Assembly (NCBI GenBank): GCA_021797085.1
Contig: JAKAAG010000004.1
Coordinates: 1-52,145, forward strand
Reading direction: 5' to 3'
DNA: 52,145 nucleotides
DNA from: Nanobdellota archaeon
GTDB lineage: Archaea > Nanobdellota > Nanobdellia > Parvarchaeales > Parvarchaeaceae
The notes under the pieces were generated by a model. It saw only the letters and a list, made by a program, of their open reading frames with translations, did no database searches and was not told where the DNA came from. Positions 5,047 to 37,837 of this stretch are shown in pieces (position 1 is the first letter of the stretch; each line of letters starts with the position of its first letter). The translations under genes were made by a program, and so were the position numbers.

Positions 5047-5047
5047 T

Positions 5048-7264: not shown

Positions 7265-7273
7265 GTCTGATTT

Positions 7274-10166: not shown

Positions 10167-10167
10167 T

Positions 10168-13324: not shown

Positions 13325-13395
13325 GTATGCTTTAAATTGTATACTGTTAAAACACTCGGTGAAAGATATAAATGGATAAAGCTTAAAATAATAAT

Positions 13396-14172: not shown

Positions 14173-14173
14173 A

Positions 14174-14181
14174 TTTAAATA
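14174..14181 (+). promoter_or_regulatory. TATA box (TTTAAATA) upstream of apgM
   Basis: Consensus octamer about 37 bp upstream of the ATG at 14215, implying a short (~10 nt) leader. Confidence 0.35.
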
Positions 14182-14214
14182 TTTCATTCTCTTTATTCAT
14201 CTAAGGCGATAGGA

Positions 14215-15465: not shown

Positions 15466-15485
15466 CCTTTCTTCAATAAATTATT

Positions 15486-15493
15486 CTTAAATA
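15486..15493 (+). promoter_or_regulatory. TATA-like box (CTTAAATA) for a probably leaderless polX
   Basis: Centred about 26 bp upstream of the ATG at 15515. Confidence 0.35.
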
Positions 15494-15514
15494 CGCCGAA
15501 TTTTTAGATAGATT

Positions 15515-17221: not shown

Positions 17222-17252
17222 TTAATAAATCCTAAGAAATCCTGTATTAAAT

Positions 17253-17948
17253 ATGGTTGAAAGGATCAAAAGCGGTGTAAGTGGATTCGATGCAATAGTG
17301 AATGGCGGATTCGTGAAAAACAGCATAGTAGCAATATATGGTTCGCCTGGTGCCGGGAAAAGTATATTTTGCACGGAATTTCTTAGAGAGGGGTTGAAAA
17401 ACAATGAAAAGGTTTTTTACATAAGCATGGAGCAGGACATAGATTCCTTTCTAGAACAATGTGATTCGTTTGGATTCAAGGAATTCAAGGAAAACCTAAA
17501 TGCCAATTTTGTCTTTTCAAGGATGAGCGGCCATGATTTCAAGAATTTTCTCTCAATAGAGCTACCTAAGATACTCGAGACAAGAAAGGAAAAGCATGCG
17601 AGGATAGTAATAGATCCTCTTACTCCTTTTCTTTGGGAAGTAAAAGATCCGACTTTGCAGAGAAATATTCTTACGGACACGTTTAAAATGCTAAGGGAGT
17701 TTGGTACAGCTCTAGTTACAATAGAGAGATACGGTGACATAAACAGGATGGAATTATCAGAGGACATAGCAATACCCATATACCTTTCAGACATGGTAAT
17801 CCTTCTTTCAATGATATACAACCAGAATTTCTACCAGAAGGCAATTTCCATAGTTAAGATGAGATTTTCTTCGCATAGCACAGGAATGCATCCTTTTGAC
17901 ATAGGAAACAACGGTATAAACATCTTTCAGGACCAGCCAGTCTTTTAA
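17253..17948 (+). CDS. RecA-superfamily ATPase, KaiC/RAD55-like
   Basis: GVSGFD...GGF...IYGSPGAGKS Walker A in a KaiC-domain context. Single domain, 231 aa. Confidence 0.75.
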   Translation: MVERIKSGVSGFDAIVNGGFVKNSIVAIYGSPGAGKSIFCTEFLREGLKNNEKVFYISMEQDIDSFLEQCDSFGFKEFKENLNANFVFSRMSGHDFKNFLSIELPKILETRKEKHARIVIDPLTPFLWEVKDPTLQRNILTDTFKMLREFGTALVTIERYGDINRMELSEDIAIPIYLSDMVILLSMIYNQNFYQKAISIVKMRFSSHSTGMHPFDIGNNGINIFQDQPVF

Positions 17949-18703
17949 TCAATTTCTACAAAAACAGGAGCATGGTCAGAACCTTGCTGCTTTTCAAGTA
18001 TACCTGCTGCTTTTACCCTGTTTTGAAGTTCCTTGGATACAAAGAAATAGTCTATTCTCCAACCTATATTGTTTTCCCTTGCGCTTTTGTAAAGGTAAGT
18101 CCACCAAGAATAATTTCCATTTTTCTTGTTGAATAGCCTGAAAGTATCTATGTACCCTTCATCTATAAGTTCATCTACAAATTTCCTTTCTTGCACAGTG
18201 AAACCTGCGCTTCCTTCATTCTGTTTCGGCCTCGCTATATCTAGTTCAGTGTGCGCAACGTTGAAATCTCCCCCTATAACTATCGGTTTTTTCTTTCTCA
18301 GGTTTTCCATGAATATAAGTATGTTTTTGTTGAATTCTAGCTTATAAGAAAGCCTGCTTAAATCCCTCCTTGAATTTGGGAAATAACTGTTTATCACAAA
18401 GTAGTCCTTTAATTCAAGAGTTAATACCCTGCCTTCGCCGTCATACTTTTCATCTTCAATCCCATAAATAACATCAATCGGCTTTTCCTTTGATAGTGTT
18501 ATGACTCCACTGTATCCTTTTTTTACCTTTGAAGGCATTATGTATGAAAAATAGCTGTCCGTTTTTATTAATCCATTTATATCTTCAATTTTTGTTTCCT
18601 GCAATAATATAACATCATACTCTTTGGAGTTTATTATCTTCTGGATCTCATTTTTTCTTGCCACGCTTCTCAGTCCATTTACATTCCAGGAAAACATTTT
18701 CAT
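17945..18703 (-). CDS. xthA: Exodeoxyribonuclease III / AP endonuclease
   Basis: EEP-fold motifs SWNVNGLRS, LQETK, GDFNVAH and SDHAPV. Confidence 0.9.
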   Translation of the reverse strand: MKMFSWNVNGLRSVARKNEIQKIINSKEYDVILLQETKIEDINGLIKTDSYFSYIMPSKVKKGYSGVITLSKEKPIDVIYGIEDEKYDGEGRVLTLELKDYFVINSYFPNSRRDLSRLSYKLEFNKNILIFMENLRKKKPIVIGGDFNVAHTELDIARPKQNEGSAGFTVQERKFVDELIDEGYIDTFRLFNKKNGNYSWWTYLYKSARENNIGWRIDYFFVSKELQNRVKAAGILEKQQGSDHAPVFVEID

Positions 18704-18766
18704 AGTCTTTTATATTATACACTATATTTATATTGGTATTTGTATAGCTATAATATAAAGAATATT

Positions 18767-21700
18767 ATGAAATCTACTACACCAGCTCATAAAAAGGGGT
18801 ATAAAGTGCACTTCACAACATTTTTAGTTGTGATGACTATACTGTTTATAATATTGTTCTTTTTGAGCACACTTAATGGGTTTTTAGGATTCAACATTGC
18901 AAAATTGTTTGGGTTAAAGCCAATAACAATAACCGCTCCTAAAAACATAAGTGTTACCCCTCCCCCTACAAACACTACAAATAGTACTAAAACTATCCCA
19001 GTACCGAAATACACAATTTTTTATGAGTCTGGACTACCGTTAGATACCCTTTGGTCTGTTTCATTGCCTTCTGGCACATCTTATTCAAATGTAAATTATT
19101 TAAATTACTCCTCTTTTCTCAAAAGTTTTTCATTTAGCGTTAACCAAGTCTTCTTAAATGGCTGTATTTTCTCTCCATCCCCCGGATCTGGAAATGTTAT
19201 TGCTGGAAATTCCGTTTATATTTCTTTTTCATCGTTATGTAATACTACTTTTGTTAGATACGGCTTACCTAACAAAGTAAATTGGACGGTTATTTATGGC
19301 AATGTTTCTAAAGATGTGGACACAAATTCAACCTCTTTTATTTCTTCTAACGGCAATTTCCCTTTTTCAATCTCAGATTCACACTACGACGGTTGCCCTT
19401 ATTATCCTTATCCCCAGTCTGGATACGTTAATGCCGGTTCATCAAAATACATAATTTTTTTTACAACCTGCAGTTCTAAATCGAATGCAGTTACATTTTT
19501 AGAGAGTGGTTTGCCACAAGGGTATAACTGGACCGTAAAGTATAATAATATCACAAATAGCTCAAATTCTACTCGGATAGTTTTTACTCCTAAAAATTCA
19601 GCCTCTTTGATTCCAGTATTCAATGTCTCTGTAATTAATAAGAATAACTGTATATTTACTCCAAATCCAAAAAATGGAAACGCTACAGTTGGTCAAACTG
19701 TTTTAATAACCTTCAATTCATTGTGCAATACTTCAGTAAGCGAAAATGGTCTGCCCGTAGGTACGAAATGGAATGTGACATTTGACAATAAAACCGTTTA
19801 CTCCGTTTCTTATTCCTTAAGAGTAAGTACCAACTACACATTGAGCAATCTAAGCTTAAAGCCCATAGTATTGGGAAATTGTACGTTTAATCCAATTGCA
19901 AATTCTAGTAATCCGATAGTTGCCGGTTCTTCTGTTTTTATAGAGTTCTCTGCAAGCTGTATAACCTCATTTTTGGAGAAGAATCTTCCTCTAGGGTTGA
20001 ACTGGACTGTAAAATATGACAATAAAACATTGCAGTCAACCTCAAGTGAAATAAAATTCAATACTACTAATGTGTTCTCTGGTTTTTCTATCCCAAATGC
20101 AACTGAGGGCGGGTGTGTATACTCCCCTACGCCATCACATGGAAATTTAACAGCCGGATCCTCTATTACTATATCTTTCTCTCAGACATGTCATACTGTT
20201 TTTGTTTCCAAAGGGTTACCGACAGGGGTATCTTGGTCAGTTGATTACGACAATCAGACAAGGGACGGTGCATTTAATTCTTCAATAGAATTCCCTTACT
20301 ATAAAGGAAAAACTTTCTCTTATAACGTGTCAACAATAAAAGTTGGAAACTGCGTATTTACTCCTTATCCTAAAAATGGAACTATACTTGCGGGAGAACT
20401 CCAACTTATAGCATTTTCAGGAGAATGTACCACAACTTTCAGTGAAACAGGACTTCCAAATAATACGGAGTGGAATGCCACTTTTGATAACAAAACAAAA
20501 TTATCAACGTCAGCCGGAATCTATTTCTATACAGTAAATGGTTCTTATCCTTTTTCAATCCCTTCTCAACCGATAAGTAGGGGCTGTTATTATGTGCCTT
20601 CCCCATCTTCTGGCAGTATAACGGCCGGTTCGAATGAAACCATAGAATTTACGGATGATTGTACAACAGATTTTATAGATCCAGGTTTGCCGCAAGGAGC
20701 GAATTGGACTGTTACGTTTGCAGGGTTAACAAAGCATTCTATAAATCAAAATGTGTCATTTCTTCTTCCCAAAGGTAAGTACTATTACCAAGTGCCGCAG
20801 ACCAGTTACAATGGCTGTAACTATGCACCCAATCAAAGTTCAGGATCTACAAGTGTTGGAGAGGATGTACATATAACGTTCAATCTTACAACCTGTGACA
20901 CTATCTTTTCAGAGGTCGGTTTACCAAAGGGAACTTCGTGGCAGGTAATATTTAACGGCACTTCCTCGGATTCTCAGACAAATTCAATCTCTTTTAGTAG
21001 CTTTCCAGGAAACTACTCATTTTCGGTTGGAAAGATAACATTAGGAACATGCGTATTTTCACCAAATGAATCTAGCGGATTTATAAATGCAGGCTCTTCT
21101 CCTGTCATAGGCTTCAGCAGTTTATGCTATACGGATTTTTATGAAAAGGATTTACCAGTAAACAGCCTGTGGAGAGTTAATTACAACGGTAAGCCTAACT
21201 CTTCAATAGGCGATTTAATCGCTATAAAGACTAGTTATGGTACTTTTCCTTATTCAATAAGTAATGTTAGCGCAGGCGGCTCATGTTACTTTATACCTCA
21301 ACCAGTTGCCGGAAATGATACAGCGGGTACAGAGGTCACAGTAAATTATATTGAGAAATGTCTGTCAAACTTTCACGAAACTGGTTTATACAGCAATGTA
21401 CACTGGTCTGTAACTTATGATGGGCACACTGTTTCAACTTACGGGAATAACCTATCCATACTAAACTTACCTGGAAATTATTCATATGATGTACCAACTG
21501 CCTTTGGAAGGGGCTGTACTTTTACATCCCTTAATTCTAGTGGTAATCTTGTATCTGGCAAAAACGCTAGCGTTTATTTCTCCCCAAGTTCATGTATTTC
21601 TAATGTTACTGAAACTGGCCTGCCGAAAAATGTAAATTGGGGTGTTTCTATAGATAACGTTACTAATTACTCTACAGAAAAATCAATTTTAGTTACAACA

Positions 21701-24700
21701 AGTCCAGGAAACTATTCAGTGCATATCCCTTCTGTAAAGATAAATGGTTGTGTTTTCTCCACAAGTTATAATAATCTAATGATGGCAGGTTCTACTATTA
21801 TAGTTCATTTTAGTGCCGCATGTCAAACCATTTTTACTGAAACAGGTTTACCTAATGGTACAGAATGGAAAGTTAACGATTCTTTTCCTTCTTATTTTGA
21901 TTATAATTTACCAATACCTGGTGAGGTATACTCTTATACAGTATACTCTTCAACAACAAATAGAATAATAGTTAATTCTTCAAATTCATCAGCTAATCCG
22001 TATAAAGTAGAAAGCATTCCTATAAATAAGTTTTGTGCATACGACCCACAACCGTCATCAGGATCAATAACTCCGGGCGATAATCTCTCCATACTGTTTG
22101 AGAATGATTGTATAACTAGCTTCAAGGAAACTGGTCTTCCAAGCGGGGCTACTTGGTATGTGTCATTCAATGATATAAATGCCTCTTCTAATTCCAGTCA
22201 AATTTCATTTTTAACAAATGCGGGAGCATATAACTTTAAAGTATTCACAGCAGAAAACCAGGGTTGTTTCTACACTTCAAATGTGACACAAGGTACACTC
22301 AATACCTCATCTGTTTTGAACATAAAATTTACAGGTAAGTTCTGCCTTACTATTTTTAACGAGACTGGCTTACCAAGTAATACAAAATGGAATGTAACTT
22401 TTAACAGTATATTAAAAGCATCCAATACATCAAAAATAACATTTAATGATTCTTTCTCCAATAATTCCTATAATTATTATATACAGCCAAAAAGCATTTC
22501 AGCTCAGGGCTGTTATATAAATTTGACTTCACCAAGCGGAACTGTTAAAGTGGGCTCATATGTGAATGTTACATATCTAAACCGTTGCAAAACCACTTTT
22601 AATGAGACAGGTCTGCCAAATAGTACAAAGTGGAGCGTGATTTTTGATGGACTATCAGGAAGTTCTTCAAATAGTTCAGTGGTCATATATGCACTACCTG
22701 GAAATCATTCCTATACACCCTCAATTATAAACATAGGGGAGGGGTGTTTTTATTATCCAAAACCAAATTCTTCATATTTAATATCTGGAGAATCTGCTAG
22801 TATCTCATACACAAAAGAATGTTTATCCACGTTTTCCCAAAATGGGTTGCCTTCTGGCGCTTTATGGTCAGTTAAGTATGATAATTTTGTCAATTCTTCT
22901 AGGTTATCAGATATAAATTTTGTGACCGCTCCCGGCAATTTCTCATTTTCTTTGAATACAGTTGATTATGCATATTGCTCCTTTTTGCCTTCTCCTGTTT
23001 CGGGTTATCTTATAGCCGGTGGAAATGTTAGCATATCGTTTATTGAAAATACCTGTAATACTACCTTTATAGAAACAGGTTTACCATTTAATACGCAGTG
23101 GAAACTTACTTTTGATGGGATAACAGAGACCCCCTCTAATAATAATGTTACAATAACTACTCCGGCAGGAATTTTTACAGCTAAGTTTTATCCAATAAAT
23201 TTGTCTAACTGCATATTTTCACCGCAACCATTGTCTAGTAGCACTGCAGCAGGTGGCTATTTCACTGTTCATTTTACTGCGTCTTGTACTACTACTTTTA
23301 ATGAGACGGGCCTGCCGAATAATACTTACTGGTTTGTTACATATAACGGTACTACAGTTTCATCAAATAGCACCATTATAAAAGTACCTTCAATAAATGG
23401 CACTTATGCGTATAGCTTGCCGTTTATAGGCAATTCTAGTTGTTCATACCGTCCGAATCCTTCTTCTGGAAATGCAATAGCTGGTTCAAAAATAGGCGTA
23501 GATTACAGTGGGGGGTGCACAACAGTATTCTATGAAAATGGTCTGCCACCTGGCAGTGAATGGAATTTAACATATGATAATAAAAGTATAAACTCTACAA
23601 GCACAAGCATCCAGTTTGTAACTCCCCCGGGTACTTTTAGGTACACCGTAGAAAACTTAACTTTAAACAACTGCTTATATGTTGCAAAGAATGGTTCTTC
23701 AGAGCTTGCTGCAGGGTCTACATTTTATCTGGTATTTAATCAGACAAGATGCTACACTACATTTACTGAAAGTAATCTTCCTTCAAATACAAAATGGACG
23801 TTAAATTATGATAATGTGAATTATAGTTCAAATAAAACTTCCTTAGAGCTATCAACTATACCAGGTACTTTCAATTTTACTGGATACAGCATAACCGAAG
23901 ATGGGTGTATATTTACCCCGAATCCAAGTAGTGGTCATATTGCGGCAGGCTCTTCTTTACTTCTTTCTTTTTCTTCTTCCTGTGTAACTTCGTTTAATGA
24001 AACCGGTCTTTCTAAGGGGATAACCTGGAGTGTTGATTTTGACGGTATAACCAATTACTCTTCTAATGCTTCTTTATACATAGACTCGATTTATGGTAAT
24101 TTCTCATTTTCAGTGCCAAGGATACAAGTATCAGCGAATTGTTATCTTACGCCTGATCCAAGTAACGGTTACATAATTGCAGGCTCAAGCACCGTTATTA
24201 ACTTTTCTAATTATTGTTACTCTGAGTTTATAGAAACGGGATTACCATCAGGTATTAGTTGGTCCGTAAAGTACAGTAATTTGACTAATTCATCTTCTCT
24301 TTCAGACATAAGTTTCAATGTCATTAGTGGCAATTATTCCTTTTCTATGCCAGCGGTTGATTATCATAATTGCTATTTCGTTTCCAATGAATCAAGTGGA
24401 TATGCAAAGGCAGGAGGCTATACCTATGTTAAGTTTACGGAGAATTATTGCATTTCAAACTTCACAGAATCAGGCTTACCAAGTAATACAAAATGGAATG
24501 TAACTTTTGCAAATAAGTCTAATGCATCCACTAAACAGTACATTCATTTGAATACCACTAAAGGTCTGTACAATTTTACAGTGCCCCCAGTAAATATTGA
24601 AGGTTGTAAATACGTTTCAACTCCCGCAAGCGGAAGCGTTGCTGCGGGTTCGGAGATTAATGTAAGCTTTTCAATTTCATTTTGCATAACTACTTTCGAT

Positions 24701-27700
24701 GAAATCGGCTTACCATTAAGAGATAACTGGTCAGTTACCTATGATAGTATGAGAAATTCTTCTGTTTCTAGCAATATAACCTTCAATATCTCTACTTTAT
24801 CATCCTTTCCGTTTTCTGTAAAGGCAGAAAATCAATCTCAATGTGATTTTATTCCAGTTCCGTCCTCAGGCAGCGTTGCTTCTGGCTCTACAGAAGTGAT
24901 AAATTTCGATAGTATCTGCCATACTTACTTTAAAGAGATCGGGCTACCTTTGGGTTATACTTGGATAGTGAATTTAAACGGGAAAAATGGTTCTTCTAAG
25001 TCAAATACTATAGAATTTACAACTTCTTATGATGATAATTACACCTTCAATATTTATCCGTCAGTAGATTATAACTCGGGTTTCCTGTCAAATATATCCA
25101 AAGGTTATATTGCTACTGGGTCAAATATTACAGTTGCATTTTCAAATGACACAGCTGCTTATAAGAAACCTGTAATAATACCCGTATCATTCTATAACAA
25201 TCAGACAGAATCCACAGCTCAACCCTATCAACAGATGCTTGTTTTCAATTCTTCAAAATATTCTAAATATGAAAACTCTAAGTTAACGAATATAATGTTT
25301 GCATATCCGAATGGAACAGCTATTCCTTCTTGGTTAGAATCTGGCAATTCAAATACATCAAACGATACTGTATACTGGCTAAAAATTAAAAGCATCCCAG
25401 CGGAAAGTGGTATAACTATCAACATGATATTCAATCAAACCTTGCTTCCTTATTCTAATAATTTTTACACTGGTATAGCAGGAGAGGCTCCACAGCTTTC
25501 TCCCATATATGGTGAGTACAACAACATAGCCAACGTTATGAATTCAGGGTTATTGTACCAGTTTTACCAGTTAAATGGCGGAGGCATCCAGTCACAGACA
25601 AGCGTTTACCAAGCACAGTTAACACCAAATTCAGTTTTCTCCTACGGTAGCTTGACAGCGACAGCAGGGCCAACATTGTATTTATCTGCATTAACAGGCA
25701 GTTCTCAGGATGTTGATGGAACAACAGAGTCAAATGTAATAATTAACTACCAGTATAGCTATTCAGGGGGAAGTGCATTTCCAAATCCGCCAATAACAAA
25801 TCCGCAGTATGTAATAATGAAGGCAATAGGCTTTGCAGTAGTTAACTCTCCAACAACAATATACGGATTAAGCGATGATGGCATGGGAATCGGTTATTCT
25901 AATTCCGGCGGGGCATTAATTCCTTGGTTGGGAGGGTCATCTACTTCAGACAATCCAAACAATATAATTAATTCTTGGGTATCGGAATCTGCTACTCAAC
26001 ATAGCGGCACTATAACTACAGACGGCAGCTACAGGCTAGAGATAGACTATACAAACCAAGGAGGGCCTGGAGAGGATGCGGTCTGGTCAAACAATTCAAT
26101 AGATTATTATTCTCCTTCACAACCTCCAAATGGCGTCATGCCATACAGTATTTCAAATGCAACATTTATAACTACTTATTTCAAAGAAACAGGGTTGCCT
26201 TTAAATTATAATTGGAATGTAAACTATAACGGTATACCAAAGTCTTCCTCAATGTCCGAGATAAACTTTACTACTGAAAGAGGAAATTACTCTTATTCCG
26301 TATCCGTTCTTCGTAATTCTTCTTCAAGTTTAGATTGTACTACAGCTTATACTCCGCTGCCTAGCTCTGGCTATTTAATAGCAGGACAGAATATTACTAT
26401 TTCATACTCTAACAGTACTTATTGTATAACTACTCTCGATCAAAACGGTTTGCCTGCAAATTCAATATTTTATGTAAATTACGATGGAATAAACAAAAGT
26501 ATCTCTTTATTTGGGAATGGACTTTTGTTATCCATCCAGAATACTCAGTCTGTTCCTACTCCTGCGCCATTCCAGCAGATGGTAAACTTTTCGTATTCAA
26601 GCTACAAGAAGTACATAAATCTAAGCAATGGTCACCAGTTCCAGAACGTGGAGTTTATAAACACTACGAGTGGAAAGGTAATAGACAGCTGGCTTGAAAG
26701 TTACACTTCTAGTTATGCCCTTTTTTGGATAAAGTTGCCAAATGGAATAGCTGCAGACACTACTGTAAAGAATGTAGCTATGCTATTTTTGAATAATGGC
26801 ACTAATTTATTTAACACTAATACTACGGGTGAAGCTCCACAGCTTTCTCCAACGTACGCAGAATACGATAACGGTGCAAACGTATTCATCAAATATTGGA
26901 ATTTTAATGGAGGTTCAGCGCCAGCAGGATTTGCTACATCTGTAGATGATGGTGGCAGTGTTTCTTATAATAATGGGTTATACTTAACTCTTCCTAACAA
27001 TAACAATGGTGCAACTGCAGCAAGTGTTTATGTTCAAACAGATCTAAGTAATCCTTTCTTCGCCTTTACTGGTACTGGAACGGGAGCTTATGCATATAGA
27101 ACTAATATAGGAATATCTGAAAGCAGTAGTAATTCAATAGAAGGTACTTGTGCGATAATGTATTATCCTTCGTATTCGTATATACCTGGTGGAGAATGCA
27201 TATCTAATGGTTTATACTCAATAACCAGTTCGGGTTATTCACAAATTAATAGTTTGTCTTATTCTTCTAGCCCGTTAATAGGTGTCGGTTTCAATTCAAA
27301 TACAGTACTTATGGTTAATAATGGATTTAATTTATATACTGATAGTTCAATCCCATTTAGTTCTACTAATTATGTGTGGCTAGGAACCTCAGCATATTAT
27401 TCAAAAACGGCAGGTTCGAATGTTCTTAATTATTTAGCATTATCAGCTTATCCTCCAAATGGCGTCATGCCAACTATAACATCTGTTTTTCAGACATCTG
27501 GGATTAATACTTCCAATGGCAGATTCTTAGCTAAACCCTCATCTAATATTGATTGTTCAAATAGTGCTATTAATCTTACAGCAGGCAGTACATATACTTT
27601 CGAAAATTGGAATTGTACTACTGAATTCAATACAACAGATATTAATCAAAATGTTACGTTTTCTTTAGATTATGATGGTTTAAACAAGTCCGGCATTACT

Positions 27701-30700
27701 GGAAAGCCTCTAAATATAAATTTCCTATCTTCTGGTAATGGTAATTATCTTTATAACGCAAAGATAAGTAATCAATGTAGTGCGAGTGGTTATGCATATG
27801 TGGGAGAGAACTCAAACATAAGTAATTGGAATTGCTCTTACCTATTTTATGAGAAAAATTTACCTACTGGCACGAAGTGGTATGTCAGTTTTAACGGGTT
27901 TAATGAGAGTTCTGCTAATAATAAGATCGTATTCTTTGATTCTCCAGGCAATTATTCTTATAAAATAAATGAAATATCTATAAAAGCAAATAACGGTTTG
28001 TCCTGTGTAAATACCTTCTACCCATCTCCTTCTTCTGGGTATATCTCTACTTTTAAAAATAATATAACTATAATATTTTCAAACAATACACAATGTACTA
28101 CTTCCTTTTTACAATTTGGATTACCCAACAATAATTGGAAAGTATCTTATAACAATAATGGATATAACTACACTTCAACTTATACCCTAATAAATATAAG
28201 CATTAGCAACGCTCAATCTATCTCAACTCCTGCGCCATTCCAGCAGATGGTAAACTTTTCGTATTCAAGCTACAAGAAGTACATAAATCTAAGCAATGGT
28301 CACCAGTTCCAGAACGTGGAGTTTATAAACACTACGAGTGGAAAGGTAATAGACAGCTGGCTTGAAAGTTACACTTCCAGTTATGCCGTCTTCTGGATTA
28401 AATTACCAAATGGAATACCCGCTTCTTCAACATTGACTGACATTGCAATAGGTTTCGCTTCAAATGACACCAATCTATTTAACAATAAGACAACAGGAGA
28501 GGCTCCGCAGCTTTCTCCAACTTATGCAGAGTATGACAATGGTGCAAATGTGTTTGATTACTATGAGAATTTTGCGGGTTCTGGATTGCCGGCAGGCTGG
28601 CAGGAGCTTACTTCTTCAGGGGATACCTATACTTGGAATAATGGGATTACTTTTACAAATAATGGCCATAATGATTACGTTTCTATAGGAACAACATCTG
28701 CGGTTGCTTCTGCAGGCATTTTAGAATTGGATGTAGCAAGTGGTTCTAATGCAAGGCCGACAATAGAATTAGCAGCTACAGACACGCAGATAGAAGGAGG
28801 TCAGCCCATATATGAATATGAGGAGGGTTACGGTCAATCTTACGGTATGTATTCAGGTGATATGCAACTGGAAACATTAACTACTTCATCTATATCCACA
28901 GCCAATTCCAAGACAGCTTATAATGCGCCCCTAATAGAGGGGATTAGCTGGACTGGAACTGGTTCAGAACTTCTGGAGATAATACCAAACTACCTTTATA
29001 ATAACATGGAAACAGTACAAGAAACAAGTACTTCTGTATCCTTGTCAACTCCTTTATACATTATGTTGGGCCAGGCTGCGTCTGGTTCTAGTTCAGATAC
29101 TGGGGGCTTCACGGCAAATTGGCTTCGTGTCCGTGCATATCCTCCAAATGGGGTTATGCCAACTGTAAAAATAAATAAGTCAGCAGTAACTGACTTGAAA
29201 TTTAATTTTTTAACTGTCCCAGGAAACTTTACTGCAAATGCAAGTACTTCTTTAGATTGTAAGCCTGAAAAGGATACAGTAAAAGCAGGAACGACTTACT
29301 TCTTTTCAAGCTGGAATTGCACTACTACTTTTAATGAAAGTGTATTGCCAAAAGACAATACTTGGTGGGTTGATTATAATGGGATAAATAAGAGCAATAA
29401 AACTGGAAATGCTATAAGAGTAAACTTTAACTCTTCCAATTTTGGAATTTATACTTATTCTGTAGGTTCAAATATAAGCTGTTCTTCTAAAGGCGTTGGA
29501 GATCTAGGAACATATAATAATATTTCAAATTGGTTATGCAATAAACAATTTACAGAGCAAGGACTTCCGAGCGGAACTAACTGGAGTGTTGACTACAATA
29601 ATAAGTTAAGCTATTCAACTTCCAATGTGATATCTTTTTCGAATAGTTTTGGGAATTACAGTTATGATATTAATAATATAACATTATCGAACGCAATCTA
29701 TGTGCCAAATTCTTCCTCAGGGTATGCAGCCCCATTTGGTAACTTCATTATAAATTTCTCAAAGCACAGTTTGGTTACTCCTCAGACTATATATAAATAT
29801 GCTGTGTTAAATATCACTAACAGTCAAAATTATTTAATTTCCGCGCCATTCCAGCAGATGGTAAACCTTTCGTATTCAAGCTACAAGCAGTACATAAATC
29901 TAAGCAATGGTCACCAGTTCCAGAACGTGGAGTTTTTCAATACAACAACTGGGTCAGTGATAGATAGTTGGCTTGAAAGTTACACTTCCAGTTATGCCAT
30001 TTTTTGGATTAAATTGCCAAATGGAATACCTGCAAACACTACTTTAAATGACATAGCAATAGGTTTTGCATCTAACGATACTAATCTATTCAATAATAAG
30101 ACCACCGGTGAAGCTCCCCAGTTATCTTCAACATATGCAGAATATGATAACGGAGCTAATGTATTTGATATATACTTTAATGGTGCTGTACCTACAAGTG
30201 ATTTTACTTTATCTGGTTCTGAAGGTTCATTATCTTCAACAACTGTTACTGGACCAAATGGGAATACTATAGATGTTTTAGAATATGCTCAAGCAAGTTC
30301 CTCCTTGTCATATTTAGCCTATAATGTTAAATCATTAAATTCTGGAAGTTATATTACTGAAGCGTCATTTCAATCTGATGGTGGAACCAGTAATACAGGT
30401 GTGACTGGTTTAGGAAATTATGAAAGTGAAAGTTCAAGTAGTAGTGCAATATACGTAGGAACACAATTTGGTGGAGATTACTTTGACCAAGATTATTTGA
30501 GTTCAGGTTCTTTAAAATTGGACCAAAACAGCCAGGGGACAACAAATGCAGATTGGAGATATGCAAGTTTGACTTATGTCTCTAGTTCTTCTTATTCTGC
30601 TTATATTGCGCCTCAGTTATATTCCGCTTCTGGAGGGTACAATGAAGTACTCTCTGAAGACCCTATTAGTTCTGCAACGACTATTTATTGGGATAATTAT

Positions 30701-32389
30701 GCATCAGCAGGTGATGGTTCACATGTTTATTATAATTGGGTTCGTATCCGTGCCTATCCTCCAAATGGAGTAATGCCATCTGTTAAATTAAATGCTCTGG
30801 TTACGAAACCAATAAATCTGTTTATAGATGGCATTTCAAACAGTAATGTTACGACTGTTTATGGTAGGTATAGCAATCTTACAGTTGAATCTAGTAATAA
30901 CTATGTTAAGATTTGGAAGGAGACAAACAATTCTGTAATGTCTTTAACTCATTTCTCTATGAATGTTTCAACATATTCTAATATTTTTGCTGCCGGGAAA
31001 GTAAAAATAATCGGAGGGTCCAATTCTACAAACATAAAAAATGTTTCTTATTATAATATAATAAATAAAGCAAATCCGATACTTAATTTAGTGTCAAATC
31101 CCGACAAAAATTATTCATATAATGGAACCAGCCTTATAATAAATGCGTCAATATCTACTATTGGGAACCAATTAAATGCCGAGTTGTATATAAATGGGAT
31201 TTTTAACCAGACCATAAATAAAAGTACTGTGTTAAATTTAAGTAGTTATGCAGATAATTACACAATAGTTCTAAATACTAGTGGAAATCAAAATTATACT
31301 GCAGGTTCTATTACAATAACAAGAGATATTTATCCACAGTTGCCTTCTTCTCTAAGTCATTACATGCCGATAAATATAACAAATACTAAGGCTATATCTA
31401 CCGCAGCGCCATTCCAGCAGATGGTAAACCTTTCGTATTCAAGCTACAAGCAGTACATAAATCTAAGCAGCGGTCACCAGTTCCAGAACGTGGAGTTCAT
31501 AAACAGAACTAATGATAAAGTGATAGAATCCTGGCTTGAGAACTATACCTCTGGTTATGCCATCTTTTGGATTAAATTACCGAATGGAATACCTGCTTCT
31601 TCAACATTGACTGACATTGCAATAGGCTTCGCTTCAAATGACACTAATCTATTTAACAATAAGACAACAGGAGAAGCACCGCAGCTTTCTCCAAATTATG
31701 CAGAGTATGACAATGGTGCAAATGTTTTCAATTTTTATGACAATTTCGCCGGGACAAGCTTGAATATTAACAAATGGAATTCAGGTGCGAGCGGTGGTAC
31801 AATCACAGTAAATAATGGCTTAACTGAAACGATTCCATACAATGCTTCTACGGGTAGTTTTACATACATTTCTACAGCATCTTATACTATAACCGGACCT
31901 GCAGTCGTTGAAAGTTATGCGAATTTGAACTCCTTCGATACGACAGATTTCAGAATCGTTCCAATTGCATTAACTCAATACAATAATACTGCTTGGCATG
32001 CTGACAATGAAGAAAATGAAAATGCAGGGGGGTGGGTAGGAGATGCATTTCAGCGTAATGGTATAGACGCTGAGACAACAAATAGCAGTTCATATAATGG
32101 ATTTGTAGACAGTAATTATATCTCTCCAAATAGTAATTACAATATTTTTGGTGTGATATATCCCGCCAATAACACCTTAGGAGTTTCTTATAACTCGTTA
32201 TACTCTTATGCTACAACTACCTCTCTTGTGCCTTCAACACCTTTGTATATAACTGTATCAAACTGGCTTTATCCTCCGCAAACCGCAGTTTCTACTACAT
32301 ACCCCATCAATGTTTATTGGGTTCTTTCTCGTGCTTATTCTCCAAATGGCGTAATGCCCTCAGTTAGTTTTGGTGGTTTATTGCAATAA
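18767..32389 (+). CDS. Giant (~4,540 aa) modular, sequon-rich surface protein (adhesin/lectin-like)
   Basis: Single 13.6-kb open frame in AT-rich DNA. N-terminal hydrophobic anchor FTTFLVVMTILFIILFFLSTL. Repeat architecture is detailed in the repeat features below. ATG 18767 is preferred over the TTG at 18740. Confidence 0.85.
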   Translation: MKSTTPAHKKGYKVHFTTFLVVMTILFIILFFLSTLNGFLGFNIAKLFGLKPITITAPKNISVTPPPTNTTNSTKTIPVPKYTIFYESGLPLDTLWSVSLPSGTSYSNVNYLNYSSFLKSFSFSVNQVFLNGCIFSPSPGSGNVIAGNSVYISFSSLCNTTFVRYGLPNKVNWTVIYGNVSKDVDTNSTSFISSNGNFPFSISDSHYDGCPYYPYPQSGYVNAGSSKYIIFFTTCSSKSNAVTFLESGLPQGYNWTVKYNNITNSSNSTRIVFTPKNSASLIPVFNVSVINKNNCIFTPNPKNGNATVGQTVLITFNSLCNTSVSENGLPVGTKWNVTFDNKTVYSVSYSLRVSTNYTLSNLSLKPIVLGNCTFNPIANSSNPIVAGSSVFIEFSASCITSFLEKNLPLGLNWTVKYDNKTLQSTSSEIKFNTTNVFSGFSIPNATEGGCVYSPTPSHGNLTAGSSITISFSQTCHTVFVSKGLPTGVSWSVDYDNQTRDGAFNSSIEFPYYKGKTFSYNVSTIKVGNCVFTPYPKNGTILAGELQLIAFSGECTTTFSETGLPNNTEWNATFDNKTKLSTSAGIYFYTVNGSYPFSIPSQPISRGCYYVPSPSSGSITAGSNETIEFTDDCTTDFIDPGLPQGANWTVTFAGLTKHSINQNVSFLLPKGKYYYQVPQTSYNGCNYAPNQSSGSTSVGEDVHITFNLTTCDTIFSEVGLPKGTSWQVIFNGTSSDSQTNSISFSSFPGNYSFSVGKITLGTCVFSPNESSGFINAGSSPVIGFSSLCYTDFYEKDLPVNSLWRVNYNGKPNSSIGDLIAIKTSYGTFPYSISNVSAGGSCYFIPQPVAGNDTAGTEVTVNYIEKCLSNFHETGLYSNVHWSVTYDGHTVSTYGNNLSILNLPGNYSYDVPTAFGRGCTFTSLNSSGNLVSGKNASVYFSPSSCISNVTETGLPKNVNWGVSIDNVTNYSTEKSILVTTSPGNYSVHIPSVKINGCVFSTSYNNLMMAGSTIIVHFSAACQTIFTETGLPNGTEWKVNDSFPSYFDYNLPIPGEVYSYTVYSSTTNRIIVNSSNSSANPYKVESIPINKFCAYDPQPSSGSITPGDNLSILFENDCITSFKETGLPSGATWYVSFNDINASSNSSQISFLTNAGAYNFKVFTAENQGCFYTSNVTQGTLNTSSVLNIKFTGKFCLTIFNETGLPSNTKWNVTFNSILKASNTSKITFNDSFSNNSYNYYIQPKSISAQGCYINLTSPSGTVKVGSYVNVTYLNRCKTTFNETGLPNSTKWSVIFDGLSGSSSNSSVVIYALPGNHSYTPSIINIGEGCFYYPKPNSSYLISGESASISYTKECLSTFSQNGLPSGALWSVKYDNFVNSSRLSDINFVTAPGNFSFSLNTVDYAYCSFLPSPVSGYLIAGGNVSISFIENTCNTTFIETGLPFNTQWKLTFDGITETPSNNNVTITTPAGIFTAKFYPINLSNCIFSPQPLSSSTAAGGYFTVHFTASCTTTFNETGLPNNTYWFVTYNGTTVSSNSTIIKVPSINGTYAYSLPFIGNSSCSYRPNPSSGNAIAGSKIGVDYSGGCTTVFYENGLPPGSEWNLTYDNKSINSTSTSIQFVTPPGTFRYTVENLTLNNCLYVAKNGSSELAAGSTFYLVFNQTRCYTTFTESNLPSNTKWTLNYDNVNYSSNKTSLELSTIPGTFNFTGYSITEDGCIFTPNPSSGHIAAGSSLLLSFSSSCVTSFNETGLSKGITWSVDFDGITNYSSNASLYIDSIYGNFSFSVPRIQVSANCYLTPDPSNGYIIAGSSTVINFSNYCYSEFIETGLPSGISWSVKYSNLTNSSSLSDISFNVISGNYSFSMPAVDYHNCYFVSNESSGYAKAGGYTYVKFTENYCISNFTESGLPSNTKWNVTFANKSNASTKQYIHLNTTKGLYNFTVPPVNIEGCKYVSTPASGSVAAGSEINVSFSISFCITTFDEIGLPLRDNWSVTYDSMRNSSVSSNITFNISTLSSFPFSVKAENQSQCDFIPVPSSGSVASGSTEVINFDSICHTYFKEIGLPLGYTWIVNLNGKNGSSKSNTIEFTTSYDDNYTFNIYPSVDYNSGFLSNISKGYIATGSNITVAFSNDTAAYKKPVIIPVSFYNNQTESTAQPYQQMLVFNSSKYSKYENSKLTNIMFAYPNGTAIPSWLESGNSNTSNDTVYWLKIKSIPAESGITINMIFNQTLLPYSNNFYTGIAGEAPQLSPIYGEYNNIANVMNSGLLYQFYQLNGGGIQSQTSVYQAQLTPNSVFSYGSLTATAGPTLYLSALTGSSQDVDGTTESNVIINYQYSYSGGSAFPNPPITNPQYVIMKAIGFAVVNSPTTIYGLSDDGMGIGYSNSGGALIPWLGGSSTSDNPNNIINSWVSESATQHSGTITTDGSYRLEIDYTNQGGPGEDAVWSNNSIDYYSPSQPPNGVMPYSISNATFITTYFKETGLPLNYNWNVNYNGIPKSSSMSEINFTTERGNYSYSVSVLRNSSSSLDCTTAYTPLPSSGYLIAGQNITISYSNSTYCITTLDQNGLPANSIFYVNYDGINKSISLFGNGLLLSIQNTQSVPTPAPFQQMVNFSYSSYKKYINLSNGHQFQNVEFINTTSGKVIDSWLESYTSSYALFWIKLPNGIAADTTVKNVAMLFLNNGTNLFNTNTTGEAPQLSPTYAEYDNGANVFIKYWNFNGGSAPAGFATSVDDGGSVSYNNGLYLTLPNNNNGATAASVYVQTDLSNPFFAFTGTGTGAYAYRTNIGISESSSNSIEGTCAIMYYPSYSYIPGGECISNGLYSITSSGYSQINSLSYSSSPLIGVGFNSNTVLMVNNGFNLYTDSSIPFSSTNYVWLGTSAYYSKTAGSNVLNYLALSAYPPNGVMPTITSVFQTSGINTSNGRFLAKPSSNIDCSNSAINLTAGSTYTFENWNCTTEFNTTDINQNVTFSLDYDGLNKSGITGKPLNINFLSSGNGNYLYNAKISNQCSASGYAYVGENSNISNWNCSYLFYEKNLPTGTKWYVSFNGFNESSANNKIVFFDSPGNYSYKINEISIKANNGLSCVNTFYPSPSSGYISTFKNNITIIFSNNTQCTTSFLQFGLPNNNWKVSYNNNGYNYTSTYTLINISISNAQSISTPAPFQQMVNFSYSSYKKYINLSNGHQFQNVEFINTTSGKVIDSWLESYTSSYAVFWIKLPNGIPASSTLTDIAIGFASNDTNLFNNKTTGEAPQLSPTYAEYDNGANVFDYYENFAGSGLPAGWQELTSSGDTYTWNNGITFTNNGHNDYVSIGTTSAVASAGILELDVASGSNARPTIELAATDTQIEGGQPIYEYEEGYGQSYGMYSGDMQLETLTTSSISTANSKTAYNAPLIEGISWTGTGSELLEIIPNYLYNNMETVQETSTSVSLSTPLYIMLGQAASGSSSDTGGFTANWLRVRAYPPNGVMPTVKINKSAVTDLKFNFLTVPGNFTANASTSLDCKPEKDTVKAGTTYFFSSWNCTTTFNESVLPKDNTWWVDYNGINKSNKTGNAIRVNFNSSNFGIYTYSVGSNISCSSKGVGDLGTYNNISNWLCNKQFTEQGLPSGTNWSVDYNNKLSYSTSNVISFSNSFGNYSYDINNITLSNAIYVPNSSSGYAAPFGNFIINFSKHSLVTPQTIYKYAVLNITNSQNYLISAPFQQMVNLSYSSYKQYINLSNGHQFQNVEFFNTTTGSVIDSWLESYTSSYAIFWIKLPNGIPANTTLNDIAIGFASNDTNLFNNKTTGEAPQLSSTYAEYDNGANVFDIYFNGAVPTSDFTLSGSEGSLSSTTVTGPNGNTIDVLEYAQASSSLSYLAYNVKSLNSGSYITEASFQSDGGTSNTGVTGLGNYESESSSSSAIYVGTQFGGDYFDQDYLSSGSLKLDQNSQGTTNADWRYASLTYVSSSSYSAYIAPQLYSASGGYNEVLSEDPISSATTIYWDNYASAGDGSHVYYNWVRIRAYPPNGVMPSVKLNALVTKPINLFIDGISNSNVTTVYGRYSNLTVESSNNYVKIWKETNNSVMSLTHFSMNVSTYSNIFAAGKVKIIGGSNSTNIKNVSYYNIINKANPILNLVSNPDKNYSYNGTSLIINASISTIGNQLNAELYINGIFNQTINKSTVLNLSSYADNYTIVLNTSGNQNYTAGSITITRDIYPQLPSSLSHYMPINITNTKAISTAAPFQQMVNLSYSSYKQYINLSSGHQFQNVEFINRTNDKVIESWLENYTSGYAIFWIKLPNGIPASSTLTDIAIGFASNDTNLFNNKTTGEAPQLSPNYAEYDNGANVFNFYDNFAGTSLNINKWNSGASGGTITVNNGLTETIPYNASTGSFTYISTASYTITGPAVVESYANLNSFDTTDFRIVPIALTQYNNTAWHADNEENENAGGWVGDAFQRNGIDAETTNSSSYNGFVDSNYISPNSNYNIFGVIYPANNTLGVSYNSLYSYATTTSLVPSTPLYITVSNWLYPPQTAVSTTYPINVYWVLSRAYSPNGVMPSVSFGGLLQ
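19010..25150 (+). repeat. 26 tandem in-frame ~80-aa two-Cys modules (GLPxxTxW ... CxFxPxPxSG ... C)
   Basis: I counted 26 consecutive occurrences of the [FY]xExGLPxxxxWxV motif. Each is followed by GxYxF, a Cys, PxPxSG, GS and a second Cys. They are diverged at the DNA level. Confidence 0.85.
25217..26143 (+). repeat. Large module M1 (diverged DUF2341-like plus beta-rich domain), ends QPPNGVMP
   Basis: AQPYQQMLVFNSSKYSKY...SWLESGN...YWLKIKSIPA...GEAPQLSPIYGEYNN. This parallels M2-M5 but is diverged. Confidence 0.7.
26561..27472 (+). repeat. Large module M2 (DUF2341-like plus ConA/LamG-like), ends YPPNGVMP
   Basis: PAPFQQMVNFSYSSYKKYINLSNGHQFQNVEF...SWLESYTSSYA.FWIKLPNG...GEAPQLSPTYAEYDNGANVF. 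Positions 26558-26709 are 100% identical to 28226-28377. Confidence 0.8.
28229..29161 (+). repeat. Large module M3 (DUF2341-like plus ConA/LamG-like), ends YPPNGVMP
   Basis: Same head as M2 (152 bp identical). The tail segment IPASSTLTDIAIGFASNDTNLFNNKTTGEAPQLSP is closest to M5. Confidence 0.8.
29840..30778 (+). repeat. Large module M4 (DUF2341-like plus ConA/LamG-like), ends YPPNGVMP
   Basis: SAPFQQMVNLSYSSYKQYINLSNGHQFQNVEF. It shares a 64-bp identical tract (29843-29906) with M5 (31406-31469). Confidence 0.8.
31403..32359 (+). repeat. Large module M5 (DUF2341-like plus ConA/LamG-like), ends YSPNGVMP
   Basis: AAPFQQMVNLSYSSYKQYINLSSGHQFQNVEF...FNFYDNFAGTSLNINKWNSG. The last part is the FxxFxG...W entry typical of LamG-like domains. 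Confidence 0.8.
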
Positions 32390-32437
32390 ATCTTGTAAAA
32401 ATAAATGTTTTTAATAAATGGAAGCGTTCAAGTAATC

Positions 32438-32956
32438 ATGGCTGTATTGTCGCATGATGAAATAATAAAGCTTCTGGATTCCAAGGAATTGAAGATAAGT
32501 CCTTTAGACAGGAAGCAGATAGGCCCAGGTTCAGTTGATCTTAGGCTAGGTTATGTTTTTCGGGTTTTCAAAAAGATAAATAAAATGGTTGTAGTAGATG
32601 ACTCTACAGACTACAAGGAACTGACAGAAGAAATAAAGATAAAAAAAGGTGAAAGTTTTCTTATTCAGCCCGGGGAACTTGTGCATGCTATAACAATAGA
32701 AAAGATATCTCTCCCACAGAACATTTCCGCTAGAATAGATGGAAGGTCAAGATTTGCAAGGCTAGGCTTATTAACACACATAAGCAGCGGTTTTATGCAA
32801 CCAGGTACTTCCGGCAAAATAGTATTAGAGATGGCCAATTTATCCCCGATAGCACTGGCAATAAAGCCAAACACTAAAATCTGCCAGATAGTATTCGAAG
32901 AGTTAAAAGGAAAGGCAAAATACTCCGGAAAATTTACAAATCAAAACAGACCTTAA
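32438..32956 (+). CDS. dcd: dCTP deaminase family (possibly bifunctional dCTP deaminase/dUTPase)
   Basis: MAVLSHDEIIKLL start as in Dcd, with GPGSVDLRLG and ARIDGRSRFARLGL. ATG 32438 is preferred over 32405. Confidence 0.88.
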   Translation: MAVLSHDEIIKLLDSKELKISPLDRKQIGPGSVDLRLGYVFRVFKKINKMVVVDDSTDYKELTEEIKIKKGESFLIQPGELVHAITIEKISLPQNISARIDGRSRFARLGLLTHISSGFMQPGTSGKIVLEMANLSPIALAIKPNTKICQIVFEELKGKAKYSGKFTNQNRP

Positions 32957-36278: not shown

Positions 36279-36299
36279 TTTTGGTTTAAAAAGAAAGGT

Positions 36300-36848: not shown

Positions 36849-36922
36849 ATACCAACTATAGTTAATTATTTATAATATAACATGTATCTAGTTTACAATT
36901 AAAAAGTAATTAAAATAGCCAT

Positions 36923-37831: not shown

Positions 37832-37837
37832 ATATAT

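Follow-up and report, generated by a model that had tools for sequence, protein, structure and literature searches.

The 52,145-nt stretch of DNA analysed here (Nanobdellota archaeon, contig JAKAAG010000004.1, positions 1 to 52,145; hereafter the window) contains a single open reading frame (ORF) of 13.6 kb, at positions 18767–32389, whose product we refer to as the giant. We conclude that the giant is probably an N-terminally anchored, heavily N-glycosylated fibrillar adhesin, in which a conserved core carries variable lectin-like heads whose specificity is diversified by cassette exchange and by the gain and loss of whole head units. Sequence comparisons point to a core made up of the anchor, a stalk of 26 modules and the first of five head units, and the protein has the architecture of a fibrillar adhesin, namely an anchor, a tandem-repeat stalk and distal head domains that are predicted to be adhesive. 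A preliminary description of this DNA, made from its letters alone, had proposed a very large surface protein, rich in sequons and anchored at its N-terminus, that carries DUF2341 and lectin-fold units and serves as an adhesin or coat, and all of the tests that we ran were consistent with that proposal. Its framing of the organism as a wall-less acidophile did not hold: the PolX encoded upstream of the giant is 91–96% identical to that of metagenome-assembled genomes (MAGs) named Candidatus Parvarchaeum, Parvarchaeota or 'Nanoarchaeota archaeon', which places the window in a DPANN archaeon of the archaeal Richmond Mine acidophilic nanoorganism (ARMAN) type, similar to Candidatus Parvarchaeum, and not among the wall-less Thermoplasmatales. 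Coordinates below are those of the window and its + strand unless noted otherwise.

The frame runs uninterrupted, as first described, from an ATG at 18767 through 4,540 codons to a stop codon at 32387–32389, with an in-frame TTG at 18740 as an alternative start. At the 36% GC content of the window, stops are expected at about 7% of random codons, and the absence of any stop over this length therefore excludes a chance origin of the frame. Gene calling places the start of the orthologue P0121 at the same ATG. An exact look-up of the protein product gave no recorded match. DUF2341 was the only Pfam family to match the giant, with no match to the Pfam Thermopsin model (PF05317) and none to NCBIfam. 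The AT-rich intergenic region at 18704–18766, shared with a divergent ExoIII-family gene (17945–18703, − strand), is presumed from its sequence and neighbours to be the promoter.

The giant begins MKSTTPAHKKGYKVHFTTFLVV..., and a hydropathy scan of the whole protein found its sole strongly hydrophobic stretch at about residues 11–45. Together with the basic tail MKSTTPAHKKGYK, this segment is encoded at 18767–18901; basic residues (HKKGYK) precede it, and a Thr/Pro-rich linker with sequons (residues 46–84; 18902–19018) follows it, so that scan and translation agree with the anchor and linker originally noted. The N-terminus is 72–98% identical among close syntenic orthologues, and the basic tail with an HFT[TA]F-hydrophobic pattern recurs in the orthologues P0122–P0124. 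We read this region as a signal-anchor, by which the basic tail would stay inside and the single hydrophobic segment would insert into the membrane, leaving about 4,500 residues outside the cell. The other end of the protein, ...SPNGVMPSVSFGGLLQ, is the conserved end of head unit 5. Neither the hydropathy scan nor the translation revealed a C-terminal hydrophobic segment or sorting signal, in keeping with the lack of a C-terminal anchor reported before, and archaeosortase/PGF-CTERM or other C-terminal anchoring was ruled out, as there is no sorting signal with a transmembrane helix. The sequon richness also proved genuine: the giant has 207 NxS/T sequons, compared with 118 ± 9 in shuffled sequences of the same composition, and the stalk alone has 118 versus 52 ± 6 (2.25-fold, z ~11), or about 4.5 per module.

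The stalk occupies residues 85–2131 (19019–25159). A motif scan, a MAFFT alignment and a hidden Markov model (HMM) built from the modules were concordant in counting 26 contiguous modules of about 77 residues, with the consensus FxExGLPxGTxWxV...GxYxF...C...PSSG...AGS..I.F...C. The 26 back-to-back modules of the preliminary description were therefore recovered with their consensus, and its Cys pair is indeed near-invariant, but the pair is spaced by 25 residues rather than about 30 (module positions 49 and 74), in a module slightly shorter than the 80 residues given. L6 and W12 are invariant in the stalk, while F1, P7, Cys49 and Cys74 are nearly so; pairwise identity among the modules is only 22–45%, and the module starting at residue 1023 has an insertion of about 20 residues. 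Where about seven more modules had been seen beyond the stalk, three are full (at residues 2472, 3027 and 3595) and the remaining four or so are truncated or degenerate.

One tandem pair of modules was modelled with AlphaFold2 (AF2) from an alignment of 25 overlapping module pairs. The structure prediction of the module suggested at the outset gave an all-β model (predicted local distance difference test score, pLDDT, 97.8; predicted template-modelling score, pTM, 0.84), in which a long strand, residues 67–81, crosses the junction between adjacent modules, implying a connection that is linker-free and stiff. On this model the module is a small β-sandwich. When the pair was compared with the PDB using Foldseek, matches were weak (template-modelling (TM) score ≤0.42) and fell on Ig/CnaB-like domains of Gram-positive pilins, of SpyCEP-type surface proteases and of similar proteins, and we claim no specific fold family for the predicted structure. 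We propose that the 26 linker-free β-sandwich modules, each with its Cys pair and about 4.5 sequons, would together make a stiff stalk coated in glycans, with an estimated length of 90–100 nm if a module measures 3.5–4 nm, as small Ig-like domains do.

The module belongs to a large family that existing models do not describe. Profile searches on single modules, which the preliminary description had recommended, found no family in Pfam or NCBIfam, and these databases likewise gave no significant family for the N-terminus or for the segment at 30788–31351. A PDB sequence search with the module profile returned noise only. A word-indexed search with the module alignment found no match, but an exhaustive HMMER search did find relatives: the profile matched 5,868 cluster representatives (clustering at 50% identity), of which 1,071 had E < 1e-30. 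The named matches come mostly from Thermoplasmata and Parvarchaeota, and the module arrays accompany YVTN/NHL propellers, phosphoesterase, ice-binding domains, DUF2341 and thermopsin. A resemblance to repeats attached to thermopsin-type proteins had been suggested in the preliminary description, and it was borne out by P0294 and P0315, which have a Thermopsin domain (PF05317; 259 and 237 bits) followed C-terminally by seven and five matches to the same module. Thermopsin (peptidase A5) and YVTN/NHL-propeller surface proteins thus share the FxExGLPxGTxWxV module with the giant, in arrays of 5–15 copies, but have a protease or a propeller as their functional domain, and the giant has no protease. 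Most members of the family also lack the Cys pair, which is lineage-specific and present in only 18–24% of module instances. PF18998 (InlB B-repeat/Flg_new_2) scored 14.9 bits in a spacer segment of the giant, below its cut-off of 23.6; some module-family proteins have one PF18998 match inside their arrays (for example P0206, 45 bits), and the similarity of the module fold to InlB in Foldseek was poor.

Searching GTDB genomes with the neighbouring PolX yielded ten related loci, and syntenic or full-length orthologues of the giant were found in at least eight other assemblies. The syntenic orthologues are those of loci L001, L003, L004, L006 and L011, the last of which is the contig of P0121. 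In the first four, a frame is open at the same position for about 2,700–2,870 codons, with 25–29 module motifs, and runs off the fetched flank; the exhaustive HMMER search added intact giants with the same module register, P0121, P0122, P0123 and P0124, of 3,956, 2,894, 4,123 and 4,712 residues, respectively. Across eight orthologues, from 95% down to 50% identity, the 26 stalk modules align position by position with no or nearly no gaps. As the modules within the giant are at most 45% identical to one another, this alignment indicates that the array is old, has not been homogenised and is conserved in length. The ratio dN/dS in the stalk is 0.06–0.10 (Nei-Gojobori, four comparisons), against 0.03–0.05 in PolX, which indicates a functional gene under purifying selection. 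In L003 and L006, the stalk is only 70–72% identical at the amino acid level, with dS >2, while the adjacent PolX is 91–93% identical with dS ~1.1, a divergence that suggests allele exchange with more distant lineages.

These comparisons also bear on the concern that the gene is an artefact, either a chimeric or collapsed metagenomic assembly of smaller genes or a decaying pseudogene. The gene is repetitive, a second DUF2341 locus breaks off at contig ends in two assemblies, and there is a sharp break in identity to L011 at 26029 (see below). The longest internal DNA repeats, however, are the DUF2341 halves of units 2–5, which are only 81–85% identical over 300 nt, and L001, from a different sample, is colinear with the giant at a steady 94–95% identity from the N-terminus to residue 2848 in unit 2, where the fetched DNA ends, and thus across position 26029. 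Intact orthologues of 2.9–4.7 thousand residues in five further assemblies keep the same 26-module register, dN/dS is about 0.08, and no stop occurs in 4,540 codons at 36% GC. The chimeric or collapsed assembly that the preliminary description had named as a refuting outcome was thus not borne out; we consider an artefact hardly credible, and the comparisons indicate that the gene is real.

Distal to the stalk lie five head units, each with a DUF2341 half and a jelly-roll half. They start at residues 2153, 2601, 3157, 3694 and 4215 with PFQQM-type motifs, have an internal GEAPQLS and finish with PPNGVMP, which in unit 5 reads SPNGVMP. Five modules combining DUF2341 with a lectin fold had been described, and both the number and the DUF2341 assignment stand, although the 305–320 residues given for them are too few (about 325–345). 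The Pfam DUF2341 model (PF10102) scored 76.9 bits on the whole giant against a cut-off of 23.4, and 23.2, 21.3, 25.5, 20.0 and 38.0 bits on units 1–5 alone, two of them above the cut-off and three just below. The preliminary description had expected profile matches to both DUF2341 and Laminin_G or ConA-like domains within 25217–32359; the former was obtained, but no Laminin_G or ConA-like Pfam model matched any unit at E ≤ 1, and the lectin-like assignment comes from the predicted fold only.

Unit 1 (25160–26179), delimited by motifs, Pfam and orthologue alignment, belongs to the conserved core that the more distant giants P0123 and P0124 share. It is followed by the full module 27 and a truncated module that runs directly into unit 2 (26180–26506, by the module HMM). 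Orthologue comparison showed unit 2 (26507–27481) to be present in L001 and absent from L011/P0121. The spacer at 27482–28171 consists, according to the module HMM, of degenerate Cys-containing half-modules, the full module 28 (residues 3027–3112) and a truncated module, and the spacer at 29171–29791 of a degenerate module and the full module 29 (residues 3595–3669); between and after these lie unit 3 (28172–29170) and unit 4 (29792–30787), both defined by Pfam and unit comparison. The two-part segment of about 190 residues that follows at 30788–31351, labelled Ig-like in the preliminary description (30779–31400), is conserved in P0121 (81%) and in P0123/P0124 (~45%) and showed no relation to the stalk module by hhalign. 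Unit 5 (31352–32386), defined by AF2, Foldseek and its homologues, is the C-terminal part of the protein, whose last residues are ...RAYSPNGVMPSVSFGGLLQ.

Unit 5, one of the five heads, was modelled with AF2 from an alignment containing 84 homologues (pLDDT 91.2, pTM 0.91). In the PDB, Foldseek matched it to the L-type lectins Emp46/47 and VIP36, to legume lectins and to GH16 enzymes (E 1e-5 to 1e-6), with target-normalised TM scores of 0.5–0.64, and we conclude from the model that the head is a ConA-like jelly roll. Since the matches include GH16 structures (6t2o, 1mac, laminarinases), the heads could be pictured as a cell-bound polysaccharide-processing array, in which GH16-like hydrolases or transglycosylases would break down glycans of the host or of a biofilm. 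The GH16 catalytic motif ExDxxE is, however, absent from all five jelly-roll halves, identity to GH16 enzymes is only 9–15%, L-type and legume lectins match equally well and no Pfam glycoside-hydrolase model matches, all of which makes an enzymatic array very improbable. As the motif is lacking in every unit, we read the heads as binding domains rather than enzymes. Among units 2–5, the DUF2341 halves are 71–83% identical, while the jelly-roll halves (the distal ~180 residues) are 26–35% identical, which implies five different heads, or putative ligand-binding surfaces, on a common base. The stalk would thus display, at its far end and spaced by a few modules, five two-domain heads, each acting as a binding domain with its own surface.

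Comparison with L011, which has the same synteny as the window, provided a view of how the heads vary. Window positions 12767–26028 are 99.92% identical to L011, with 10 mismatches in 13.3 kb. At 26029 there is a sharp breakpoint, beyond which mismatch density is about 10% and the sequence then becomes a mosaic: unit 2 is missing from L011, unit 3 through the base of unit 4 is 82% identical, the segment between the unit-4 and unit-5 cassettes is 84% identical, and the downstream flank is 92% identical. The jelly-roll cassettes of unit 4 (30195–30734), which is flanked by DNA of 82–84% identity, and of unit 5 (31778–32317) have no DNA similarity to L011 at all. A similar pattern was found at a second locus, where a multi-DUF2341 gene with its own transmembrane N-terminus (MNNKAQMITIFFSLFLILAI...) lies beside ELP3/TopoVI genes in other Parvarchaeota MAGs (L014 9721–11460; L015 10001–11693). 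The two contigs share 99.6% identity over 10.4 kb, are then unrelated for 536 nt and share 98.6% identity again after that. The cassette of L014 with its short flanks (698 nt) is 98.6% identical in DNA to window positions 28469–29166, which include the unit 3 cassette (28580–29115), and the encoded protein is 100% identical over 196 residues; the L015 allele carries a different cassette. Both contigs end inside the second DUF2341 gene, which suggests a repeat-induced assembly break. In the giants of L004 and L006/P0122, the base of unit 1 is 77–80% identical to that of the window, and the cassette has been replaced. The cassette boundaries, ...GEAPQLSxxYAEYDxGANVF at the 5' side and RxRAYPPNGVMP at the 3' side, coincide with repeated DNA families (D2 and D4) within the gene. 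By these alignments, the distal ~180 residues of each head behave as an exchangeable cassette, moving from strain to strain and from one locus to another. We propose that recombination in the conserved flanks replaces the jelly roll between strains, units and loci, while the anchor, the stalk and unit 1 would stay fixed.

Variable binding segments swapped by homologous recombination between conserved flanks are known from Neisseria pilE/pilS and from phage tail-fibre tips. The cassettes of the giant are likewise variable segments between conserved flanks on a scaffold that is kept. Unlike in pilE/pilS, neither a dedicated silent-cassette locus nor a recombinase was seen for the giant, and exchange is deduced from metagenome assemblies.

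Relatives of the heads are widespread. More than 1,000 homologues of unit 5 were found at E ≤ 1e-3, typically of 350–600 residues, in Parvarchaeota (including ARMAN-4 and ARMAN-5), Micrarchaeota and some Sulfolobales, and unit 5 is 69% identical to the pilin-like protein P0001. The N-termini of these homologues (KSQSALEYMMTYGWAILIIVIV...) are prepilin-like, with Q at +1 and E at +5, and the ~500-residue head proteins of Parvarchaeota and Micrarchaeota begin KSQSALEYMMTYGWAIL.... The N-terminal part of the profile of the ~500-residue relatives matches the PDB filament subunit 8fk7 ('Flagellin', E 3.4e-4), and P0202, which combines a prepilin-like N-terminus with five stalk modules and DUF2341 heads, is encoded immediately 3' of a Peptidase_A24 prepilin-peptidase gene. 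No Pfam or NCBIfam model recognises these N-termini, and we identify them as prepilin-like on account of the motif, the 8fk7 match and the adjoining Peptidase_A24 gene. The pilin-like proteins share with the giant a DUF2341 and jelly-roll head ending RAYPPNGVMPSVxFG, and some (P0202, P0047) insert one to five copies of its stalk module. They differ in size and build: they have 350–1,400 residues, one or two heads, a prepilin signal and a pilin-like domain, whereas the giant has a plain N-terminal transmembrane anchor, 26+3 modules and five heads. DUF2341 proteins have been proposed as adhesins at the tips of archaeal type IV pili (Makarova et al. 2016, PMC4858521), and LamG-like jelly-roll proteins, expanded in DPANN archaea and linked to type IV pilus loci, have been proposed to act in host contact (Golyshina et al. 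2017, PMC5498576).

Given such relatives, the giant itself might be a pilus tip adhesin that is matured by a prepilin peptidase and carried on a type IV pilus, as the ~500-residue relatives would be. Its close head and head-plus-module homologues have prepilin-like N-termini, one of them next to a Peptidase_A24 gene as above, and the giant has the sequence 'KKG|Y' just before its hydrophobic segment. Motif inspection of the N-terminus, however, revealed neither the Q(+1)...E(+5) signature nor a pilin globular domain, and the orthologue P0124 has KKHY, without the Gly, for which reasons we rejected a prepilin reading of the N-terminus. Furthermore, the 52-kb window contains no pilus genes, and a plain transmembrane N-terminus followed by modules recurs in Parvarchaeota module proteins that have propeller heads (the P0128/P0275 cluster). 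A pilus-mounted giant is accordingly quite improbable.

The heads are also related to proteins of archaeal viruses. Foldseek against BFVD matched unit 5 to a DUF2341 protein of Sulfolobales Beppu rod-shaped virus 1 (SBRV1; E 5.5e-26, query-normalised TM score (TMq) 0.73); SEV1, a lipothrixvirus, AMDV3 from acid mine drainage and SPV2, where the protein is annotated 'putative viral structural protein', were matched as well. By tblastn, 56 viral records matched the head, all of them from Sulfolobales viruses; SIRV4 ORF37 is 52% identical to unit 5 over 94% of the unit (327 residues, E 1e-88). The cassette of head 4 shares 37% identity with the C-terminal half of the DUF2341 protein in SIRV2. The counterpart of this protein in SIRV3 bears the annotation 'structural protein', as do viral homologues in SPV2 and Los Azufres virus, and the DUF2341 gene of SIRV1 (ORF562) lies directly after ORF1070, a putative minor structural protein. 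No viral match was found for the cassettes of heads 1 and 2, only the conserved flank of head 3 matched a virus, and tblastn with the stalk module found no match in viruses. The viral DUF2341 proteins (SIRV1 ORF562, SIRV2, SIRV4 ORF37, SBRV1, SMV, lipothrixviruses) therefore have a homologous two-domain head; at about 560–580 residues they have one head and no stalk modules, and the texts consulted document no receptor-binding role for them. The terminal fibres of rudiviruses are anti-receptors that bind host pili (PMC4456609). A literature search yielded nothing usable on the virion role of the rudiviral P564/ORF562, and the texts consulted do not document ORF562-type proteins as part of these fibres.

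At the site of the giant, L002, L005, L007 and L010 (PolX 76–93% identical) have the ExoIII gene followed directly by dcd, with the giant absent, and no mobile-element scars were evident at the junction. The distant giants P0123 and P0124 lie at unrelated loci. Absence from the same site in close relatives, together with the other loci in distant ones, indicates that the gene is accessory and has moved. This distribution bears on whether the giant might instead be a structural surface coat, a glycoprotein brush of the S-layer or glycocalyx kind against acid, metals or viruses, with jelly rolls that associate with one another. Its extreme sequon density, its rigid-looking stalk and its N-terminal anchor would all suit such a coat, and the same module builds many surface proteins of Parvarchaeota and Thermoplasmata with unrelated heads (YVTN propeller, thermopsin, ice-binding). 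An essential part of the envelope would be unlikely to be missing from the same site in several close relatives, however, and diversification of the heads by cassette on a fixed stalk is a pattern typical of recognition proteins and not of lattice proteins; the homology of the heads to pilin-like and virus structural proteins also argues against a lattice. We infer from these patterns that the giant is an adhesin rather than a passive coat, which we consider unlikely.

What an adhesin of this kind would bind is a separate matter. We suggest, tentatively, that it recognises glycans or glycosylated filaments displayed by Thermoplasmatales partner cells, given the lectin-like fold of its heads, their relatedness to pilin-like and viral proteins and the contacts known between ARMAN archaea and Thermoplasmatales; other cells more generally would be the likely source of such ligands, with the Thermoplasmatales partners of ARMAN the most plausible. 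Pili-like structures mediate the contact of ARMAN cells with wall-less Thermoplasmatales (PMC5498576).

Several points weigh against the adhesin interpretation or parts of it. A signal-anchor and a cleaved signal peptide are indistinguishable from sequence alone, and the distal 1,690 residues of this exact allele have no confirmation from a second assembly. The break against L011 at 26029 could reflect strain-switching during assembly of one contig, and some of the swaps, that of L014 above all, could be de Bruijn-graph chimeras across shared flanks of 50–110 nt; the cassette pattern recurs in several independent assemblies and studies, which makes a general artefact unlikely. The neighbours of the giant in the 52-kb window are all housekeeping genes, with no pilus, secretion or glycosylation genes among them, and lectin-fold domains are known to bind proteins as well.

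The design of the giant resembles that of fibrillar adhesins and periscope proteins in bacteria (SasG, Rib and SiiE, for example), which combine an anchor, a long rigid stalk of β-domains and distal adhesive domains, and the weak Foldseek matches of its module are domains of Gram-positive pilins and surface proteins. To our knowledge, the domains of these adhesins are not homologous to those of the giant. Retention also differs, by LPXTG or by a type I secretion system (T1SS) retention module in the bacterial proteins and by an N-terminal transmembrane segment in the giant, as does the number of heads (one versus five). Repeat number varies between strains in periscope proteins, while the 26 modules are fixed in eight orthologues down to 50% identity, and the conservation of this register led us to reject the periscope class for the giant.

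Closer in biology are the SPEARE proteins of Nanohaloarchaeota (Hamm et al. 2019, PMC6642349). Both they and the giant are very large (3–8.5 thousand residues), mostly extracellular proteins of DPANN symbionts with laminin-G or jelly-roll adhesion domains, a proposed role in host contact and a variable extracellular part. SPEARE proteins, however, have serine-protease, toxin-like and cytoplasmic type III restriction-enzyme-like domains and usually a C-terminal transmembrane segment, none of which the giant has, and the 26-module stalk and DUF2341 heads are specific to the giant. We rejected SPEARE membership for lack of the protease, the nuclease and the C-terminal transmembrane segment; Hamm et al. 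report no SPEARE relatives from Parvarchaeota (PMC6642349). Giant proteins with DUF2341 are known from Patescibacteria (PMC11809585) and an expansion of LamG-like proteins from the DPANN archaeon Mia14 (PMC5498576). With giant adhesin-like proteins and LamG expansions on record in DPANN and candidate phyla radiation (CPR) lineages (SPEARE, Mia14, Patescibacteria), the general kind of protein is already known, and the Parvarchaeales papers that were searched made no mention of the giant gene.

The remainder of the window is made up of other genes. Upstream of the giant are genes for fibrillarin/Nop, phosphoglycerate mutase, PolX, a KaiC-like ATPase and the ExoIII-family nuclease, and downstream are genes for dCTP deaminase, EndoIII, peroxiredoxin, superoxide dismutase (SOD), ABC transporters and others. 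At 4991–11748 is a cluster of four genes encoding two PrkA-like AAA/kinase proteins (757 and 607 residues), a DUF444 (YeaH-like) protein and a SpoVR-like protein. Stress modules of this PrkA-YeaH-YcgB type are best known from bacteria; the cluster is kept in related loci and occurs here in a small DPANN genome. The longest dCTP-deaminase ORF (32405–32956) starts at 32405, but relatives begin MAVLSHDEI... and the L011 gene call has 172 residues, which suggests that the true start of dcd is near 32438. The sequence GTTTTTAATAAATG upstream of dcd is conserved with or without the giant gene and is probably the dcd promoter. ORFs of 480, 283, 172, 302 and 241 residues at 106–1548, 1780–2631 and 36330–38563 had no Pfam match.

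Related loci showed further features. L011 has an IS200/IS605-type OrfB/TnpB (Cas12f-like TNB) gene at 21774–22979, where the window is uninterrupted at 36285/36288. In L009 (PolX 75%), a prepilin-like protein (…RSGQSALEYMMT…) is encoded at 6170–7660, about 2.3 kb upstream of PolX, and the window has no such gene there. A family-2 glycosyltransferase gene directly follows P0124 (L019 19308–20573) and could bear on protein glycosylation. An intein (Intein_splicing and LAGLIDADG_3) interrupts a beta-type subunit of pyruvate:ferredoxin oxidoreductase in a related MAG (L013 16125–18149).

Three aspects of the giant appear to be new: the combination of a fixed 26-module stalk, built from an unmodelled domain of Thermoplasmata and Parvarchaeota, with five DUF2341/jelly-roll heads; the behaviour of these heads as a pool of exchangeable cassettes; and the close kinship of this pool to proteins of rudiviruses and other Sulfolobales viruses. 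We know of no attachment molecule proposed so far for the ARMAN/Parvarchaeum lineage. The giant is a concrete candidate for the means by which ultrasmall DPANN archaea recognise and hold their hosts; its five heads are separable, its stalk has a predictable length, and its presence or absence and its cassette variation can be set against the host taxa. The work also defines a widespread extracellular domain family without a model, with about 5,900 clusters at 50% identity, and ties the DUF2341 and jelly-roll unit to structural proteins of Sulfolobales viruses, suggesting a recognition module common to viruses, pili and symbionts. A bolder possibility, which we regard as doubtful but worth stating, is that the giant serves Parvarchaeum as an organelle for capturing hosts, a fixed-length line of some 100 nm made of a single polypeptide, whose head cassettes are traded among DPANN adhesins, pilus-tip proteins and archaeal viruses. 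If this were true, cassette recombination and gene gain and loss would set which hosts, by the glycan types on wall-less Thermoplasmatales, a cell can attach to, and the symbionts and viruses of acidophilic archaea would use and trade the same recognition hardware.

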